DNA of 64,000 nt from an uncultured virus (IMG/VR IMGVR_UViG_3300030107_003727). Its lineage: Duplodnaviria > Heunggongvirae > Uroviricota > Caudoviricetes. Numbering within the stretch: position 1 is the stretch's first letter; every line of letters starts with the position of its first letter. The stretch lies in the IMG/VR virus record IMGVR_UViG_3300030107_003727; one strand, given 5' to 3'. The translations under genes were made by a program, and so were the position numbers. The notes beneath the pieces were generated by a model, which saw nothing but the letters and a program-made list of their open reading frames with translations, was not told the origin of the DNA and ran no database searches. Below, piece after piece: positions 17,309 through 29,783 of this stretch.

Positions 17309-17738
17309 GCCCATGTATGAATCCGCAATGGATCTTGCGCGAGAACACGACATCATGCAGAAAGTGTCCGCAGCATGGGGTGTGCAGTATTACAAATTGC
17401 CAATCAGTTATCGGCTGGATTTCATTCTGATGAGCGCAGAAAAACCCAAAGCGTTTGTCGAATGCAAACACCGAAACTTTGCGTGGGGGGATTACCCCGA
17501 CGTAATGATTAGCATGTCTAAAGTCATGGTTGCTGAACAGATGTTGCAAATCACTGGCTTGCGCACGATGTTTGTAATCCGTGCCAAAGACCAAATCTTG
17601 TACACCCAACTAAATCTCTGCGCCAGCAACGTAGACTGGCTAAGGTTCGGCGGAAGAACTGCGAACACTAGGGATGACGGGGATGTAGAGCCTGTGTACC
17701 ACATCCCTGCGCAACAATTCTCGATGCTAGGCAGTTGA
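17301..17738 (+). CDS. PD-(D/E)XK-like nuclease
   Basis: LDF..AFVECKHR motif; homologue 61266-61700. Confidence 0.65.
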   Translation: MSRPMYESAMDLAREHDIMQKVSAAWGVQYYKLPISYRLDFILMSAEKPKAFVECKHRNFAWGDYPDVMISMSKVMVAEQMLQITGLRTMFVIRAKDQILYTQLNLCASNVDWLRFGGRTANTRDDGDVEPVYHIPAQQFSMLGS

Positions 17739-17740
17739 TA

Positions 17741-18121
17741 GTGGGCAAGATGCAACGGGACAAAGGAAAAAGGGGTGAGCGCGAAGTCGTGCAGATTATG
17801 AAATCGCTCGGCTGGAAAGATGCGCGCAGGTCGCGCCAGTCTGATGGTGCAGTTGATCCCGACGTTGCTGGATGCGATCCACTTTGGATTGAGGTGAAGA
17901 GGCGCAAAGCCATCGCTGCGCTGCGCTTCATGGATCAAGCGATTGACGATGCAGAAACAAAAAAAACCCCCGTCACCTTCATGCGTGAAGATAACGGGGG
18001 TTGGTATGTAATGTTGCGCGCAGACGATCTGCTTAGGTTGGCCCATATTGTCGTTGGACAATCTTCCGAATGCTTGAAGCATCCCACTTCGTCCCACGAG
18101 GACGATAGCCTCCATCCGTAA
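17741..18121 (+). CDS. Holliday junction resolvase (Hjc-like)
   Basis: KGKRGERE..PDV..WIEVKRR; homologue 61713-62093. Confidence 0.8.
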   Translation: MGKMQRDKGKRGEREVVQIMKSLGWKDARRSRQSDGAVDPDVAGCDPLWIEVKRRKAIAALRFMDQAIDDAETKKTPVTFMREDNGGWYVMLRADDLLRLAHIVVGQSSECLKHPTSSHEDDSLHP

Positions 18122-18719
18122 GTTTCTGCGCAATCGTGCGCCAGCCGAAGCCGACTTTGCGTAGGTCGTGCATTGTCTTGAGAATTGTTTGCTCCTCAGA
18201 ATTTTCAACGAGTCGAGTGCTGTCCTCGGGCGATACGTCGTACCCGAACGGGGCATACCTGCTCATGCGTCGGCCCTCTTTCTGGTGACGTTTCATTGCC
18301 ACCGAAGTGCGAACCTGAATGAGCCTGCGCTCATACTCCGCCGCTGCTGCGAGAACCTGACGGATCAGCACACCCTCTGCGGAGTCATCAACTGGCCCAT
18401 CACGCACCGCTTGGATGGTGAATCCATGCTTGGCAGCATGACGGTGCAACGCCTCATTTAAATACAAGTCACGCGCAAGACGGTCCATTTTCCAGACCAG
18501 AAGAACGCCGCCCCTTGGCACGGCATCCATTGCAGCCCACAAGCCATCGCGCTCAGGATCGGAACCGCTTGCGTTCTTATCACTGAAAACATTACAAATG
18601 GCCCAACCGTTGCTTTTGCAAAATTCGATCATCTCGCCTTCTTGCATTTTGATTGACTCGCTTTCCCCACCCGGTCGTGGGGAGAAGCGAGAGTAAAGAA
18701 CGCATCGAGGAACCGTCAT
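18033..18719 (-). CDS. Serine recombinase (resolvase domain + short recombinase domain)
   Basis: YSRFS, SGS..R.GL, KMDRLAR, APFGY, IAQKL..KW. Confidence 0.9.
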   Translation of the reverse strand: MTVPRCVLYSRFSPRPGGESESIKMQEGEMIEFCKSNGWAICNVFSDKNASGSDPERDGLWAAMDAVPRGGVLLVWKMDRLARDLYLNEALHRHAAKHGFTIQAVRDGPVDDSAEGVLIRQVLAAAAEYERRLIQVRTSVAMKRHQKEGRRMSRYAPFGYDVSPEDSTRLVENSEEQTILKTMHDLRKVGFGWRTIAQKLTDGGYRPRGTKWDASSIRKIVQRQYGPT

Positions 18720-22578: not shown

Positions 22579-22606
22579 CGCTGCGCCCCCGTTAAGGGGC
22601 GGAGCG
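22579..22606 (-). terminator. Intrinsic terminator-like hairpin between AAA and VWA genes
   Basis: CGCT-CGCCCC/GGGGCG-AGCG stem followed by TTTTCGATTCTTCTTTT. Confidence 0.6.
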
Positions 22607-22630
22607 CTAGGAGTTGTGGCGATGTGCGAA

Positions 22631-24061
22631 TCACCACTGACCAAGCATGGACACGGCCTTGTCAAGTTCGCGCGAAGGCAAGTGCTTCCACGCCTTGCGC
22701 ACCTCAGTGCTTGACCACAGGCGACAGATCCGGCCAACAGTCTCACCGACCGACAGCCCGTTGCTGCGCCATGTTGTCCAGCCTTGCATGGTGCGAGTTT
22801 GGATCGTGCGTGATCCGTCGATGCATTCATCACGCAAGTTCTTGCGCGCTTCTGCAAGGATCGGATGCTCGTGGGCATACTTGCCGAGAATGTTGGACTC
22901 TACTTCGGGGTCGTAGTCGAAGTGAACCATGACACCAAGTTGCTCCCACCGCGCAACAAAGTCGGCGGATTGTTTCTCGGTGGCGTACTCACCGTCTGCG
23001 CCACCCGGACCATCCATTGCCGAGTTGCCCGTGGCGATGAATACGAAGTCATCATGCTTGAGCAAGTCTTCGTTGCCAACCCGAATGCGCGGGTTAAAGT
23101 TGACGTGCTGGTTGCACGATGATGTCGCGGTGGTGTCGGCCTTGTCCATCTCGTCACCGCAGTAGACCGCAGCGCTTGCGTACGCTTTGGTCAATGGCCC
23201 GGGTTGGAATTTGCCATTGGCATCGGTGAACCCGTGGATGCGTTCGGGGAACATTGAGCCGTCGTAACCTTGCAGCACAAACTCGCGCCCCAAGATTTGC
23301 GCAATCTGCTCGGCTGCGTACGACTTGCCAGTGCCGGACGGGCCAGCCATGTACAGCCGACCGTGGGCAAGGACGCAAGCCAAGCATTCGACCAGTTGGC
23401 GGTGTGGGTTGCTGATCACGCCGCGCCGTACTGCGTCACGGATCATGCGCTCGGCGCGCTCGAACACGTTGAGATCACCGTCGGGGATCGGTGGTGGCGC
23501 GGGCAATTCTGCGCCATCATCCGACTCGGACTCGGACTCGGTGTCGGCTTCGTCTTCGGGCATCGGCGGTGGTTGGGGGAGATCGTCGGACTCGGACTCG
23601 GACTCGCCGTCACCCTCACCCTCACCGTCTGCGCCATCCGACTCGCCGTCGCTGGACTCGCCATCGGAAGCGCCATCGAATTCGGGGGCATCGCCCGCTT
23701 CGCCCGCATCCCGACAGTCAAACTCTGCGCCGCCGTTGGCCTCAACCTCACCAACCGTGAATTCGTCGGCAATGGCTTGCTGCGCGTCACGGGGCAGCGC
23801 CAAGAATGCGTCAACCGCCGCGCCGGTGCTGCGAATTGGCTTGGGCATATCGGGCGATCCATCGCGCCGCGAACGCGCAAACAGCGCCAACACGGCCTCG
23901 CCGCCGTGGGCATGAAGTACGGGCCAACCGCCCTTGGGGTCCAACAGCCATTCGGCTTCGCGCAGTCGCAGGTTGGGCCACAACGCGGTCTTGGAACCAT
24001 GATTTTGGCAGGCTTGCTTGACGCGCCGCCGTTGCGTCATTATCAGTGAATTTGCTGGCAT
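22631..24061 (-). CDS. MoxR/CobS-like AAA+ ATPase with acidic linker
   Basis: GPSGTGKS Walker A, GDEMD Walker B, ATGN sensor; AGGAG RBS before MPANS. Confidence 0.85.
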   Translation of the reverse strand: MPANSLIMTQRRRVKQACQNHGSKTALWPNLRLREAEWLLDPKGGWPVLHAHGGEAVLALFARSRRDGSPDMPKPIRSTGAAVDAFLALPRDAQQAIADEFTVGEVEANGGAEFDCRDAGEAGDAPEFDGASDGESSDGESDGADGEGEGDGESESESDDLPQPPPMPEDEADTESESESDDGAELPAPPPIPDGDLNVFERAERMIRDAVRRGVISNPHRQLVECLACVLAHGRLYMAGPSGTGKSYAAEQIAQILGREFVLQGYDGSMFPERIHGFTDANGKFQPGPLTKAYASAAVYCGDEMDKADTTATSSCNQHVNFNPRIRVGNEDLLKHDDFVFIATGNSAMDGPGGADGEYATEKQSADFVARWEQLGVMVHFDYDPEVESNILGKYAHEHPILAEARKNLRDECIDGSRTIQTRTMQGWTTWRSNGLSVGETVGRICRLWSSTEVRKAWKHLPSRELDKAVSMLGQW

Positions 24062-24075
24062 AGTAAAACTCCTAG

Positions 24076-24132
24076 TGGGAAGACTCATCAGCGCAGGCAT
24101 TCCCAAGCCTGCGGACACCGAAGTGTTTCGTC
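24076..24132 (-). ncRNA. Type II hammerhead ribozyme
   Basis: GAC-GAAA-CAC[UUCG]GUG-UC^CGCAGGC[UUGGGAAU]GCCUGCG-CUGAUGA-GUC-UUCCCA: full core, three stems and loop I/3'-tail pseudoknot. Confidence 0.93.
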
Positions 24133-24168
24133 ATTGTCCCGTTGTACCGCTTGACGCTGGGGACTCAT

Positions 24169-24483
24169 TCACCGCTTGCAATGTCGAGTACGGTGAGGAT
24201 GGTGGACGCTGGCATAAGTCTCAAACTGCGCCCACCGATAGTGGTCGAACACTTGAAGCAACGAAATAACGGAATCGCTGGGTAATCCGAAACGCTTGCA
24301 CGCGACGGCTTTTCCTGTCGTTCGACGCAATTTTGTGTAGCGCCGATATACCCTTAGACCCCGCAGTACATGCTTGAGAATGGCTGATGCCTTGGGTGAG
24401 TGGCTGATGCCGAAGCGCGTTTGCGCTGTACGCTCAAAATCCATACTTCTCGCTGCATGCCTCTCTTGACCGGCTGATGCCAT
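24169..24483 (-). CDS. Possible small basic early protein
   Basis: ORF on the operon strand upstream of the ribozyme; no motif recognised. Confidence 0.3.
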   Translation of the reverse strand: MASAGQERHAARSMDFERTAQTRFGISHSPKASAILKHVLRGLRVYRRYTKLRRTTGKAVACKRFGLPSDSVISLLQVFDHYRWAQFETYASVHHPHRTRHCKR

Positions 24484-25155
24484 TGTGTGCGTTGCACTGA
24501 ACATCAAGAGACTGCGTTGCGTTGTCATCCCATCGCTGGGACGGACAAAGCCTACCACAACTTTTGCACCCTTGACCTACACCGCTCGATTTTATTTGCG
24601 TGGCGTTGCGTGATTTGCACGAAAACCCCTATTTTTGTAGGCGTTTGGGCCACGCAAACTTTTTTTATTTTCTTGCGCGATCAGTCCATGTGCAAGGTTA
24701 TCGGGCATGGGATTGCCCCCACTTGCCCCACTTGCATTGTGCAATCGTCGTTTGCGTGGGGCATGCCGATGGGCCTTTACCTTGCCATGTTCCGACAGTG
24801 TAAATGTGCCCCGGATGGGTGGCGCAAGTCTTGGTCTTGGTCTTGGGGTTGCGCTGCGGTTGCGATTGAAACCCCGTTTGGGTTAGCACTTCCTTACACC
24901 AACTCCTGCGCGGGCGCGCGCGATCATCCAATGTGGGCCATGCGAACGCTTGCACCACGCTGGATGCATTCATGTATGGGCCATTGCGCTACGTTGCGTT
25001 GGGGTTTGGCTGGAGTTTGAATTGGAATTGCGCGGTTTGCGTCGATTGCGCGAAAACTGGAACCACGCCCCCACCCCATTTCACATATATATATCTCAAG
25101 CCAATACACGGGGTATTTTGGGGTGTTAATTTAGGCAAGTCCCGATGATGGGGTT

Positions 25156-25575
25156 ATGGATTGCCCTGTATGTAGGAAACGGATAGAGCAGGGCTTTGCT
25201 AGTTGTGAGCAGCAAAAAGAGCAATTACAGGCCAAGAATCAGCGTTTGGTTCTGGCTTTGGTGGTTTTGGCGACTTTGGCTGGCAGAGAGGCTGTCGATT
25301 ATGCGTTCGGGCTGTCAGAAGCAGTTGAGCAAGTCATCTCGCAAAAAGAAACTGAGCAAAGAAGCCCAGCAGGCTTTGCTTCGAGCGTACGGCCTTCAGC
25401 CCAAGGAAAAGAAATCCTGTTGGTCGGCGGGCGTGATGTACCCCTATTCCCTCATTTACCGCCACTTACGCCATCGTTGGTGCAACATGACCCAGTGGAT
25501 GAAATCGTTGTTCCTGACCCTGCTGCGATGATGCTATTTGGGTTGCTGCTTACCCCGTCCAGAAAAAGGAAGTAG
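25156..25575 (+). CDS. Membrane protein with PEP-CTERM-like C-terminus
   Basis: Ends VPDP-AAMMLFGLLL-TPSRKRK; N-terminal CxxC and hydrophobic segment. Confidence 0.6.
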   Translation: MDCPVCRKRIEQGFASCEQQKEQLQAKNQRLVLALVVLATLAGREAVDYAFGLSEAVEQVISQKETEQRSPAGFASSVRPSAQGKEILLVGGRDVPLFPHLPPLTPSLVQHDPVDEIVVPDPAAMMLFGLLLTPSRKRK

Positions 25576-27759: not shown

Positions 27760-28126
27760 GGAGTTTTCTTGGTCTACCAAGAAGAACGGTAAGTCCTATC
27801 CGGATCTAATCTGCAAGGAGTGTCGAAGATGGGAAAAGATCAAGAAGAAGTACGGCATGACCAAGGAGATGTGGTGGGATCTGTGGGACCAGCAGGGGGG
27901 GAGAGACCCAGTGACCGGCCAAAAACTGGACCCAAAAACTTGCCATGTGGATCACTGTCACCGGACTGGTCAGATTCGTGGCTTGCTGAACGGCTCTACC
28001 AACAGAGGCTTGGGATATCTGGGAGACTGCGCAGAGAACCTGAAGAGGGCGATTGACTATCTCGAATCACCAGTACAACCATCTTGTTCCACAGACGCTA
28101 CGGGAGAATCTGAACTTCCGGCGTGA
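27701..28126 (+). CDS. Endonuclease VII-like protein
   Basis: KYGMT..QGG..HVDHCH.TGQIRGLL..N.GLG.LGD..AIDYL; GGAGG RBS. Confidence 0.85.
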   Translation: MSQKKHQCKCRVCLKVLPSREFSWSTKKNGKSYPDLICKECRRWEKIKKKYGMTKEMWWDLWDQQGGRDPVTGQKLDPKTCHVDHCHRTGQIRGLLNGSTNRGLGYLGDCAENLKRAIDYLESPVQPSCSTDATGESELPA

Positions 28127-29783
28127 GTTGTTGCAAGCGGCTGCCGGTAGCCCAGAGACACAGGCAGAACTGTGGAAAATGTGCAACCGCGACATCTTTT
28201 TCTACATCAACGCTTTCGGCTATACCCTCGACCCTCGGCTAGAACCAGCCGCTCGCCCTTTCATTTTATACCCGTTTCAGGAAGAGGCGATTGACGCAAT
28301 GGTTGAGTCAATCGAGACAGGCCATGACCTAGCCATGGTCAAGTCTCGGGACATGGGTGCGTCATGGCTTTCGACAACAGTGTTCGCTTGGTACTGGCAC
28401 TTCAAGCCGCTGAAGTCGCTTCTTCTTGTCAGCCGTAAAGAGGGTTTGGTAGATTCACCGGGGAACAGCGCAAGCCTGTTCTCCAAGATTGACTTTTTCT
28501 TGGAACACTTACCCGGATGGCTTGTGCCTAACTACACCAGAACCAAGTTGAGGTTGACCAATGACGACAACGGAAGTGCCATCACTGGCGAATCTACCAC
28601 GGGTGATGTGGCACGGGGTGACCGTAAGACCTGCATCGCGCTTGATGAGTTTGCGTCAGTGGAAAATGGTGGTCAGGTTCTCGCTGCGACCGCTGATGCA
28701 ACTAACAGCCGATGGTTCATTAGCACCCCGAAGGGTTCGGGCAACGTGTTCTATGACATTGTGCATTCAAAGAGGACAAAAACGCTCGAATTTCACTGGA
28801 CTCAAGATCCACGAAAGAATTCAGGTTTGGAATATGGCCCAGATGGGAAGCCTACTTCACCGTGGTACAGGAAAGAAGTGCAGCGGCGTACGCACCCAGT
28901 TGAAATAGCGCAAGAACTTGATCTTGACTTTGCGGGTTCTGAGTACCTGTTTTTCCCACAAGAAGTATTGGAAAAAGCAAATGCAAACATCAAACCGCCA
29001 CTCAGGTGTGTATCAGTGGAGCATGACCAATCGGGCCGTCTACTCAGCGTCTCAACGCATCCAAAAGCACCTCTCCAACTCTGGGTTGAATTGGATGAAA
29101 GAAACAATCCGCCACTGGATTGTGACTATGTGGTCGGAGCCGACATTGCAGCCGGAACGGGGAGCAGTAACTCTGTTGCTACGGTGGTCCGGCGCAAGGA
29201 CGGAGAAAAGGTTGCAGAATTCTGTTCTGCGAATATGCGTCCAGACCAGTTTGCTCGGGCTGTCGTGGCGATATGTAGGATGTTCCGGGGCAAAAGCGAG
29301 ACGGGGGCGTATTTAATCTGGGAGGCAAACGGGCCGGGGCGCATCTTTGGAGATGTTGTCATGGAAATCGGGTACGGGCATGTCTACTACCGCCGTAACG
29401 AAAAGTCAATTTCATCCAAAACCAGCGACATCCCCGGCTGGTACAGCACCAAAGAAGAGAAAATTGCGCTTTTAGGAAATTACCGAAGGCTGCTGTCCAA
29501 CGGAAAGTTCATTAACCGTAGCCGTGAAGCCTTGAAAGAGTGCCTTGAGTACGTTTTCACACAGGCTGGCGGCGTAGTCCATAGCCGCTCACGGAACGGT
29601 CTTGACCCGTCTGGTGCAAAAGACAACCACGGCGACCGGGTTATTGCGGACAGTTTGGCTGCAAAGTTGATTGAAACTGCTCCTGCTCCGATGATAAAAG
29701 AGGCGAAGCAGTCTGAGTATGGCAGTTTGGCGCACCGGCGCGAATCTAGGAAAAATAGCAGGAAGAAGGCTAAACAATGGTAA
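28053..29783 (+). CDS. terL: Terminase large subunit
   Basis: KSRDMGASW Walker A, ALDEFA Walker B, STPKG, GADIAAG and HGDRV nuclease motifs. Confidence 0.93.
   Translation: MTISNHQYNHLVPQTLRENLNFRRELLQAAAGSPETQAELWKMCNRDIFFYINAFGYTLDPRLEPAARPFILYPFQEEAIDAMVESIETGHDLAMVKSRDMGASWLSTTVFAWYWHFKPLKSLLLVSRKEGLVDSPGNSASLFSKIDFFLEHLPGWLVPNYTRTKLRLTNDDNGSAITGESTTGDVARGDRKTCIALDEFASVENGGQVLAATADATNSRWFISTPKGSGNVFYDIVHSKRTKTLEFHWTQDPRKNSGLEYGPDGKPTSPWYRKEVQRRTHPVEIAQELDLDFAGSEYLFFPQEVLEKANANIKPPLRCVSVEHDQSGRLLSVSTHPKAPLQLWVELDERNNPPLDCDYVVGADIAAGTGSSNSVATVVRRKDGEKVAEFCSANMRPDQFARAVVAICRMFRGKSETGAYLIWEANGPGRIFGDVVMEIGYGHVYYRRNEKSISSKTSDIPGWYSTKEEKIALLGNYRRLLSNGKFINRSREALKECLEYVFTQAGGVVHSRSRNGLDPSGAKDNHGDRVIADSLAAKLIETAPAPMIKEAKQSEYGSLAHRRESRKNSRKKAKQW

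Follow-up and report, generated by a model that had tools for sequence, protein, structure and literature searches.

The stretch of DNA analysed here, 64,000 nt from an uncultured virus of the Caudoviricetes (IMG/VR record IMGVR_UViG_3300030107_003727; hereafter the window), very probably carries a true type II hammerhead ribozyme, stabilised by a pseudoknot, within the leader of a leftward phage operon, where it would cut itself and thereby insulate or process the message of an AAA ATPase gene. We base this assessment on the motif itself, its statistical significance, its class membership as judged by structure, the covariation found across that class, and the placement of the class next to ribosome-binding sites (RBS).

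A complete type II hammerhead on the minus strand

A base-for-base check of the minus strand between 24132 and 24076 found a complete type II hammerhead to be encoded there (Table 1). All of the required core is present, namely C3 U4 G5 A6 N7 G8 A9, G12 A13 A14, the A15.1-U16.1 pair and a nucleotide other than G at position 17, and over the core columns checked the letters agree with 133 to 145 of 145 aligned phage hammerheads. Position 17 is a C, as it is in 143 of the 145 aligned rows. Loops close off stems I and III while stem II (GAC/GUC, 3 bp) is open-ended, which makes this the type II permutation. Loop I and the 3′ tail form a pseudoknot of six Watson-Crick pairs with an offset of 0, the tail starting directly after stem II, and the duplex energy is -8.2 kcal/mol. 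Stem III is short (4 bp), which counts against the assignment. Downstream of the ribozyme the order is CU, the Shine-Dalgarno sequence (SD) AGGAG, UUUUACU, and then the ATG at 24061. Cutting is predicted at the bond that joins 24114 to 24113 and would leave a 5′ UTR of 52 nt.

These results bear out most of what the original prediction had claimed from the letters of the sequence. Each hammerhead element was found at its proposed position when the minus strand was re-read; the type II topology with a complete core is present by sequence, by alignment to the Rfam model and by the score of our own model (both described below); and the UGGGAA/UUCCCA pairing of loop I with the tail is as described. 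The cleavage site, with C17 at the junction of stems III and I, was likewise correctly placed, the leader of about 50 nt proposed for the processed message agrees with the 52 nt counted, and the ribozyme does adjoin the RBS of the ATPase gene, with a gap of 2 nt between the pseudoknot strand and AGGAG.

Table 1. Coordinates of the ribozyme, its surroundings and related features at other loci (window positions unless a locus is named)
Feature	Location	Strand	Basis or remark
AAA_5 / phrog_249 ATPase, 476 aa, first gene of leftward operon	22631..24061	-	Pfam/PHROG matches
ATPase start codon ATG	24061-24059	-	
Shine-Dalgarno AGGAG	24069..24073	-	2 nt past pseudoknot strand, 7 nt ahead of ATG
3′ tail UUCCCA, pseudoknot strand	24076..24081	-	pairs with loop I UGGGAA 24105-24100
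Stem II 5′ strand GUC	24082..24084	-	sequence, descriptor
Core CUGAUGA (C3 to A9)	24085..24091	-	sequence, RF02276 and R1 alignments
Stem I hairpin CGCAGGC / GCCUGCG, 7 bp, 8-nt loop	24092..24113	-	sequence, descriptor
Stem I strands	CGCAGGC 24113-24107; GCCUGCG 24098-24092	-	
Loop I UUGGGAAU, 8 nt	24106-24099	-	
C17, predicted self-cleavage 3′ of C17	24114	-	GUC triplet, stem III/stem I junction
Stem III hairpin ACAC-UUCG-GUGU, 4 bp, UUCG loop	24115..24126	-	sequence, descriptor, R1 alignment
A15.1-U16.1 pair	A24126-U24115	-	sequence
Core G12 A13 A14 and A15.1 (GAAA)	24126..24129	-	columns invariant in 145/145 aligned phage hammerheads
Stem II 3′ strand GAC, ribozyme 5′ end	24130..24132	-	pairs with GUC 24084-24082
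About 1 kb lacking any coding-like frame; presumably leader plus divergent control region	24133..25155	.	codon usage
Hairpin leader ahead of ATPase SD	L001 2440-2560; L131 697-817; L132 241-361		
phrog_249 AAA ATPase after hammerhead	L015 1-1194	-	5e-53
phrog_249 AAA ATPase after hammerhead	L066 1-687	-	
Other AAA ATPase family, phrog_1297, after hammerhead	L002		
phrog_3777 (DUF3846-like) protein after hammerhead	L102 1-270	-	

Significance of the motif and its detection by covariance models

A descriptor that asked for CUGAUGA, GAA, three helices and any base but G at position 17, with no demand for the pseudoknot, matched exactly once when the two strands of the window were searched. Run on 40 Mb of simulated sequence (a first-order Markov model of the window, amounting to 312 window equivalents), it gave nine loose matches, none of which had stems as long as those of the window.

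The Rfam type II check that had been suggested gave a divided answer. The RF02276 (Hammerhead_II) model aligned over its full length (1-66 of 66) with 25.8 bits and an E-value of 8.6e-4 in the 91-nt stretch searched, but this score falls under the curated gathering cut-off of 37 bits, which is an operational threshold and not a structural feature. A scan of the whole window at the gathering cut-off listed no ribozymes and so missed the hammerhead at 24132-24076, and an E-value scan of the 401 nt around the ribozyme listed nothing, from which it follows that the Rfam filters lose this hammerhead.

For a model independent of the window, we used a sample of hammerheads obtained with a core/stem II pattern from public viral contigs (at least 129 stretches). 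In A1, a MAFFT alignment covering 29 hammerheads of the pseudoknot class, stem I came out structurally inconsistent; A1 was therefore dropped in favour of A2, nine sequences with near-uniform stem I geometry. The covariance model R1 was built from these nine hammerheads of other phage contigs, with the window sequence left out. When R1 was run on the whole window with filters off, the hammerhead scored 46.4 bits (E 9e-9) and the next match 14.1 bits (E 0.31), with no second hammerhead above the latter score. The window thus holds one hammerhead, and a highly significant one. In 20 phage loci, 13 of the 39 hammerheads found by R1 were listed by Rfam at the RF02276 gathering score with filters on, so that, across this 20-locus sample, cut-off and filters together overlook the majority of phage type II hammerheads. 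The sub-threshold score of the window ribozyme is typical of the pseudoknotted class with a short stem II.

Membership in a class of phage hammerheads

Searching the window and 99 loci with R1 gave 145 matches (108 distinct) among the matches listed, and the window copy ranks 26th. When the 108 distinct sequences were aligned, 98.2% of the cells were paired and 14 of the 16 pairs had changed on both sides, again among the matches listed; both the pairing and the two-sided changes are far above slid and shuffled controls. In alignment A3, the three pairs of stem II are standard pairs in 99.7% of cells, and all seven pairs of stem I covary. The pairing alignment leans towards the structure because it was fitted to R1. 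The pseudoknot, which is scored by neither R1 nor the descriptor, is for that reason a fair test. A pseudoknot of at least 5 bp starting no more than 2 nt from stem II is present in 37 of the 108 sequences versus 5.0% of controls with mismatched loops and tails, and among those with a loop I of at least 7 nt, 35 of 46 show a loop/tail pairing of at least 5 bp versus 16% of mismatched controls. The helices involved are diverse (GGCA/UGCC, GACA/UGUC, GGUA/UACC and CACC/GGUG, with GGGAA/UUCCC in the window). The window ribozyme is a plain member of this short-stem-II, pseudoknotted subclass, and we consider it highly likely to be a functional one, with cleavage predicted at C17. Close copies of it, searched for with patterns of loop I, core and tail, numbered zero in viral contigs and zero in metagenome contigs, and hence its own lineage offers no covariation.

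The sample also contains a second subclass (L012, L017, L019, L029 and others) that has a 4-bp GGAC/GTCC stem II, the tail ATCAG, a loop I of 4 nt by the parse used, and no loop/tail pseudoknot. The 3′ tail of this subclass, AUCAG in the RNA, is complementary to CUGAU of the core. Separately, same-strand arrays of type II hammerheads were seen in L070 (7 matches), L011 and L052 (5 each), L064 (4) and L056 (3), and many ribozymes of such arrays in other viral contigs sit just before an RBS.

In 2011 Perreault et al. (PMC3088659) described pseudoknotted type II hammerheads of phages, showed that the pseudoknot is needed for fast cleavage at 0.5 mM Mg2+, and proposed that such hammerheads split long phage transcripts into shorter messages. 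In Desulfovibrio vulgaris, three type II hammerheads near phage-derived genes are reported to cleave in vivo (PMC8782182). A review (PMC6765202) restates a role in processing, stability or translation as unproven, and calls the role of bacterial and phage hammerheads largely unknown. Ribozymes of this kind, with the same sort of pseudoknot and in phages, have thus been known since 2011, and the window adds an ordinary new example.

Genomic setting of the ribozyme

As proposed originally, the gene after the ribozyme encodes an AAA ATPase (AAA_5 / phrog_249). Its relatives align from residue 11 onward, so the ATG at 24061 is taken as the start and the ribozyme lies outside the coding sequence. 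The leftward block comprises this ATPase, a DUF7192 / phrog_1909 gene, several ORFs without a family, a DUF3846 gene, Sir2 and a small serine recombinase, and the phage nature of the window is marked by a large terminase at 28053, an SU10-like portal at 29777 and giant ORFs. The VWA partner that had been assigned to the ATPase was not recovered: the second gene matches DUF7192 (27.1 bits, the cut-off being 27) and phrog_1909, and a search by sequence gave it no solved VWA structure and no solved relative with an E-value under 0.17. Within 17492-18719 on the minus strand, the ORF for the serine recombinase (18033-18719) codes for only 228 aa with a partial Recombinase domain, and a 254-aa ORF whose codon usage looks non-coding overlaps it; the enzyme may be of a short, invertase-like type, or else a large serine recombinase that has been truncated or frameshifted.

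For the ORFs and six-frame windows scored upstream of the ribozyme, between 24133 and 25155, codon-usage log-odds range from -0.16 to -0.27, versus +0.11 to +0.25 for the majority of confident genes, and the ORFs at 24169-24558 and 24487-25020 have no Pfam or PHROG match. The former was considered as a real gene and rejected, having a codon-usage score of -0.21 and no Pfam/PHROG family. With about 1 kb of apparently non-coding DNA upstream, the ribozyme seems to close a long leader, or else a divergent control region, and not to lie between cistrons. A scan of 23900-25300 found no promoter ahead of the ribozyme (the single promoter-like site, no better than chance, lies over the ATG), and sites resembling terminators were absent; since no upstream promoter was identified, transcription across the ribozyme is assumed from gene orientation. 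No DNA similar to 22600-25200 was matched in deposited phage records.

The region 24133-25155 lies between divergent leftward and rightward modules and contains short repeats: GGCTGATGCC occurs three times at 24378-24481, three copies resemble TTGCGTKGCGTTG, and TTTGCGTGGC / GCCACGCAAA form an inverted repeat. It may be a control region or an origin.

Placement relative to the ribosome-binding site

When the 145 matches were clustered by ribozyme together with the 60 nt that follow it, 105 clusters resulted, and 101 of them had at least 200 nt of downstream sequence. Among the matches listed, 76 of these 101 non-redundant phage type II hammerheads are followed, 10-39 nt after stem II, by an SD-preceded start codon with an ORF; of 5050 positions drawn at random from these loci, 13% satisfy the same SD and start criterion. 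From stem II to the start codon the median is 24 nt in the 76 cases and the distance is 20 nt in the window, and from stem II to the SD it is 2-26 nt and 8 nt, respectively. The 101 were ascertained through one core/stem II pattern and neighbours of the hits and are no census, and the 75% RBS adjacency is therefore valid for that sample, although such ascertainment should not bias what lies downstream. The RBS adjacency of the window ribozyme is thus the normal placement in the sample. The rarity implied when the element was first noted does not hold, its kind having been in print since 2011 and its adjacency to an RBS being usual. A rule for this spacing was not found in print by a full-text search, and in the main text of Perreault 2011 (PMC3088659) the terms 'Shine-Dalgarno' and 'ribosome binding' do not occur.

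Predicted processing of the ATPase message

Transcription across the leader, cleavage and an effect on stability or translation are the predicted parts of our reading. A minus-strand transcript crossing the leader would fold into the hairpins of stems I and III and the 3-bp stem II, with the 6-bp loop I/tail pseudoknot holding stems I and II parallel, and the RNA would then cut itself after C24114. The upstream piece, an apparently non-coding leader of about 1 kb that includes stem III, would be released with a 2′,3′-cyclic phosphate. The ATPase message would begin, 52 nt before its ATG, with a 5′-OH buried in the stem I hairpin and the pseudoknot, and the SD would be left 2 nt past the pseudoknot. 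In effect the ribozyme would likely be a natural insulator or processing site, which would give the message a fixed, structured 5′ end independent of the upstream transcript and probably change its stability or translation efficiency.

The closeness of the tail to the SD also raises the alternative of a switch, in which UUCCCA would pair by turns with loop I, forming the pseudoknot (ribozyme active, SD free), and with GGAG of the SD (ribozyme slow, SD masked), thus coupling cleavage to translation initiation. The tail is complementary to two purine runs, UGGGAA in loop I and AGGAG in the SD, the minimum free energy folds of precursor and 3′ product both pair UUCC with GGAG, and in the 3′ product GGAG is mostly paired (predicted unpaired probability 0.03-0.12). 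However, the SD/tail helix has 4 bp including a G-U and is worth -3.5 kcal/mol, compared with -8.2 kcal/mol for the pseudoknot, and the leader folds no better than shuffled sequences (z 0.16, with 108 of 200 as good, and z -0.59, with 49 of 200). When the tail is held unpaired, the SD is still predicted to pair, now with the coding sequence, which argues for generic weak structure. Moreover, most of the other pseudoknot tails compared (UGCCA, UGUCA, AGGCC, AGCCC and similar ones), judged by eye, have no SD complementarity, and SD/tail pairing is therefore not a feature of the class. We consider such a switch unlikely, and the coupling of ribozyme folding to translation that had been suggested for this operon is not borne out by these energies and folds. 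Our preferred reading remains a ribozyme that processes the leader of the ATPase message.

Homologous ATPase loci and genes following other hammerheads

The nearest relatives of the ATPase (57-58% identity) are encoded on a viral contig (L001) and three metagenome contigs (L131, L132 and L133). No hammerhead was found at these four loci with R1 and filters off (best score 10.5 bits), L133 being uninformative because it has no DNA upstream of the ATPase gene. The ribozyme is therefore not conserved at this gene. The other three loci have in common a conserved leader, about 115 nt long, that contains hairpins of 16-17 bp, 13 bp and 5 bp. The first of these (16-17 bp) shows one compensatory change, G-C to A-U, among three near-identical sequences, and a scan of the L001 leader against Rfam gave no family above noise.

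More distant ATPases do follow hammerheads. The phrog_249 ATPase of L015 has 25% identity to that of the window (E 9e-17), and a second phrog_249 member follows the hammerhead in L066, so that the expectation of the same element before homologous ATPases is realised in distant relatives and fails in the nearest ones. Another AAA ATPase family (phrog_1297) and phrog_3777, the family to which the window's own DUF3846 gene belongs, are also found after hammerheads, and together with the two phrog_249 cases they indicate that the link between hammerheads and accessory genes of this operon type recurs, albeit patchily. Genes downstream of other hammerheads are mostly small and of no assigned function, and 51 of 75 have no PHROG match at E 1e-5 (among the matches listed).

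Such patchiness would also be expected if the ribozyme were a passenger, that is, a functional RNA serving itself or a mobile cassette, gained by recombination and harmless where it lands. The absence of a hammerhead from the loci of the closest ATPases and the large share of downstream genes without a family fit this picture, as do the two or more hammerheads present in 31 of the 95 loci with a match (among the matches listed) and the statement of Perreault et al. (PMC3088659) that the genes flanking phage hammerheads are not constant. But if downstream expression were not under selection, the strict SD and start spacing seen in 76 of 101 cases would be hard to account for, and the core and pseudoknot of the window copy are intact. 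We therefore regard a mere passenger as very unlikely. A chance look-alike without activity, to which the score under the Rfam gathering cut-off, the lack of conservation in ATPase relatives and the short stem III might point, is so improbable as to be negligible, considering that 40 Mb of simulated sequence held no equally strong match, that the independent model R1 gave E 9e-9, and that a 6-bp pseudoknot scored by neither model nor descriptor sits at the exact position seen in the class.

Within the preferred reading of a self-cutting processing element, a further possibility is that phage type II hammerheads in general are natural RBS-adjacent insulators placed by selection and that in the ATPase lineage they are interchangeable with the conserved hairpin leader, which would achieve the same in a different way; this is a tentative extension, with the balance tilting slightly against it. 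If it were true, the processed message would open with a cap made of stem I and the pseudoknot, followed by an SD about 8-12 nt past stem II.

Comparison with known hammerheads and insulators

The window ribozyme resembles RF02276 and the type II hammerheads of bacteria, prophages and phages in Perreault 2011 (PMC3088659) in its core, its open stem II permutation and its 3-bp stem II, and also in having a pseudoknot of at least 4 bp right after stem II, a phage setting and an intergenic position before a gene. It differs in being a single copy and not a cluster, in scoring below the Rfam cut-off (25.8 versus 37 bits), in having a loop I (UUGGGAAU) one base longer than UUGGCAU, the commonest in the sample, and in following an apparently non-coding leader of about 1 kb instead of coming directly after a stop codon.

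Engineered insulators provide a second comparison. RiboJ is a type III hammerhead from a satellite RNA with an added hairpin, and its original description reportedly dates from 2012. The processing predicted in the window is like that of RiboJ and related engineered insulators (PMC6206723), in that a hammerhead directly before an RBS removes the variable upstream RNA and leaves a defined 5′-OH leader. It differs from RiboJ in being a natural, pseudoknotted type II ribozyme whose effect on expression is predicted. The hairpin leaders of L001, L131 and L132 occupy the same slot, from the upstream DNA to the SD of a phrog_249 ATPase, but are plain hairpins without a ribozyme core, which may act as a processing site or a protective structure.

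Taken alone, the window ribozyme is one more phage hammerhead among thousands. Worth retaining are the spacing to the RBS, now given in numbers, the hairpin leader that relatives carry in the same slot, and the low recall of the Rfam cut-off on phage hammerheads. With a single ribozyme, a long untranslated leader running up to the first RBS of the operon, and a hairpin leader in its place in relatives, the ATPase operon offers a clean test case.
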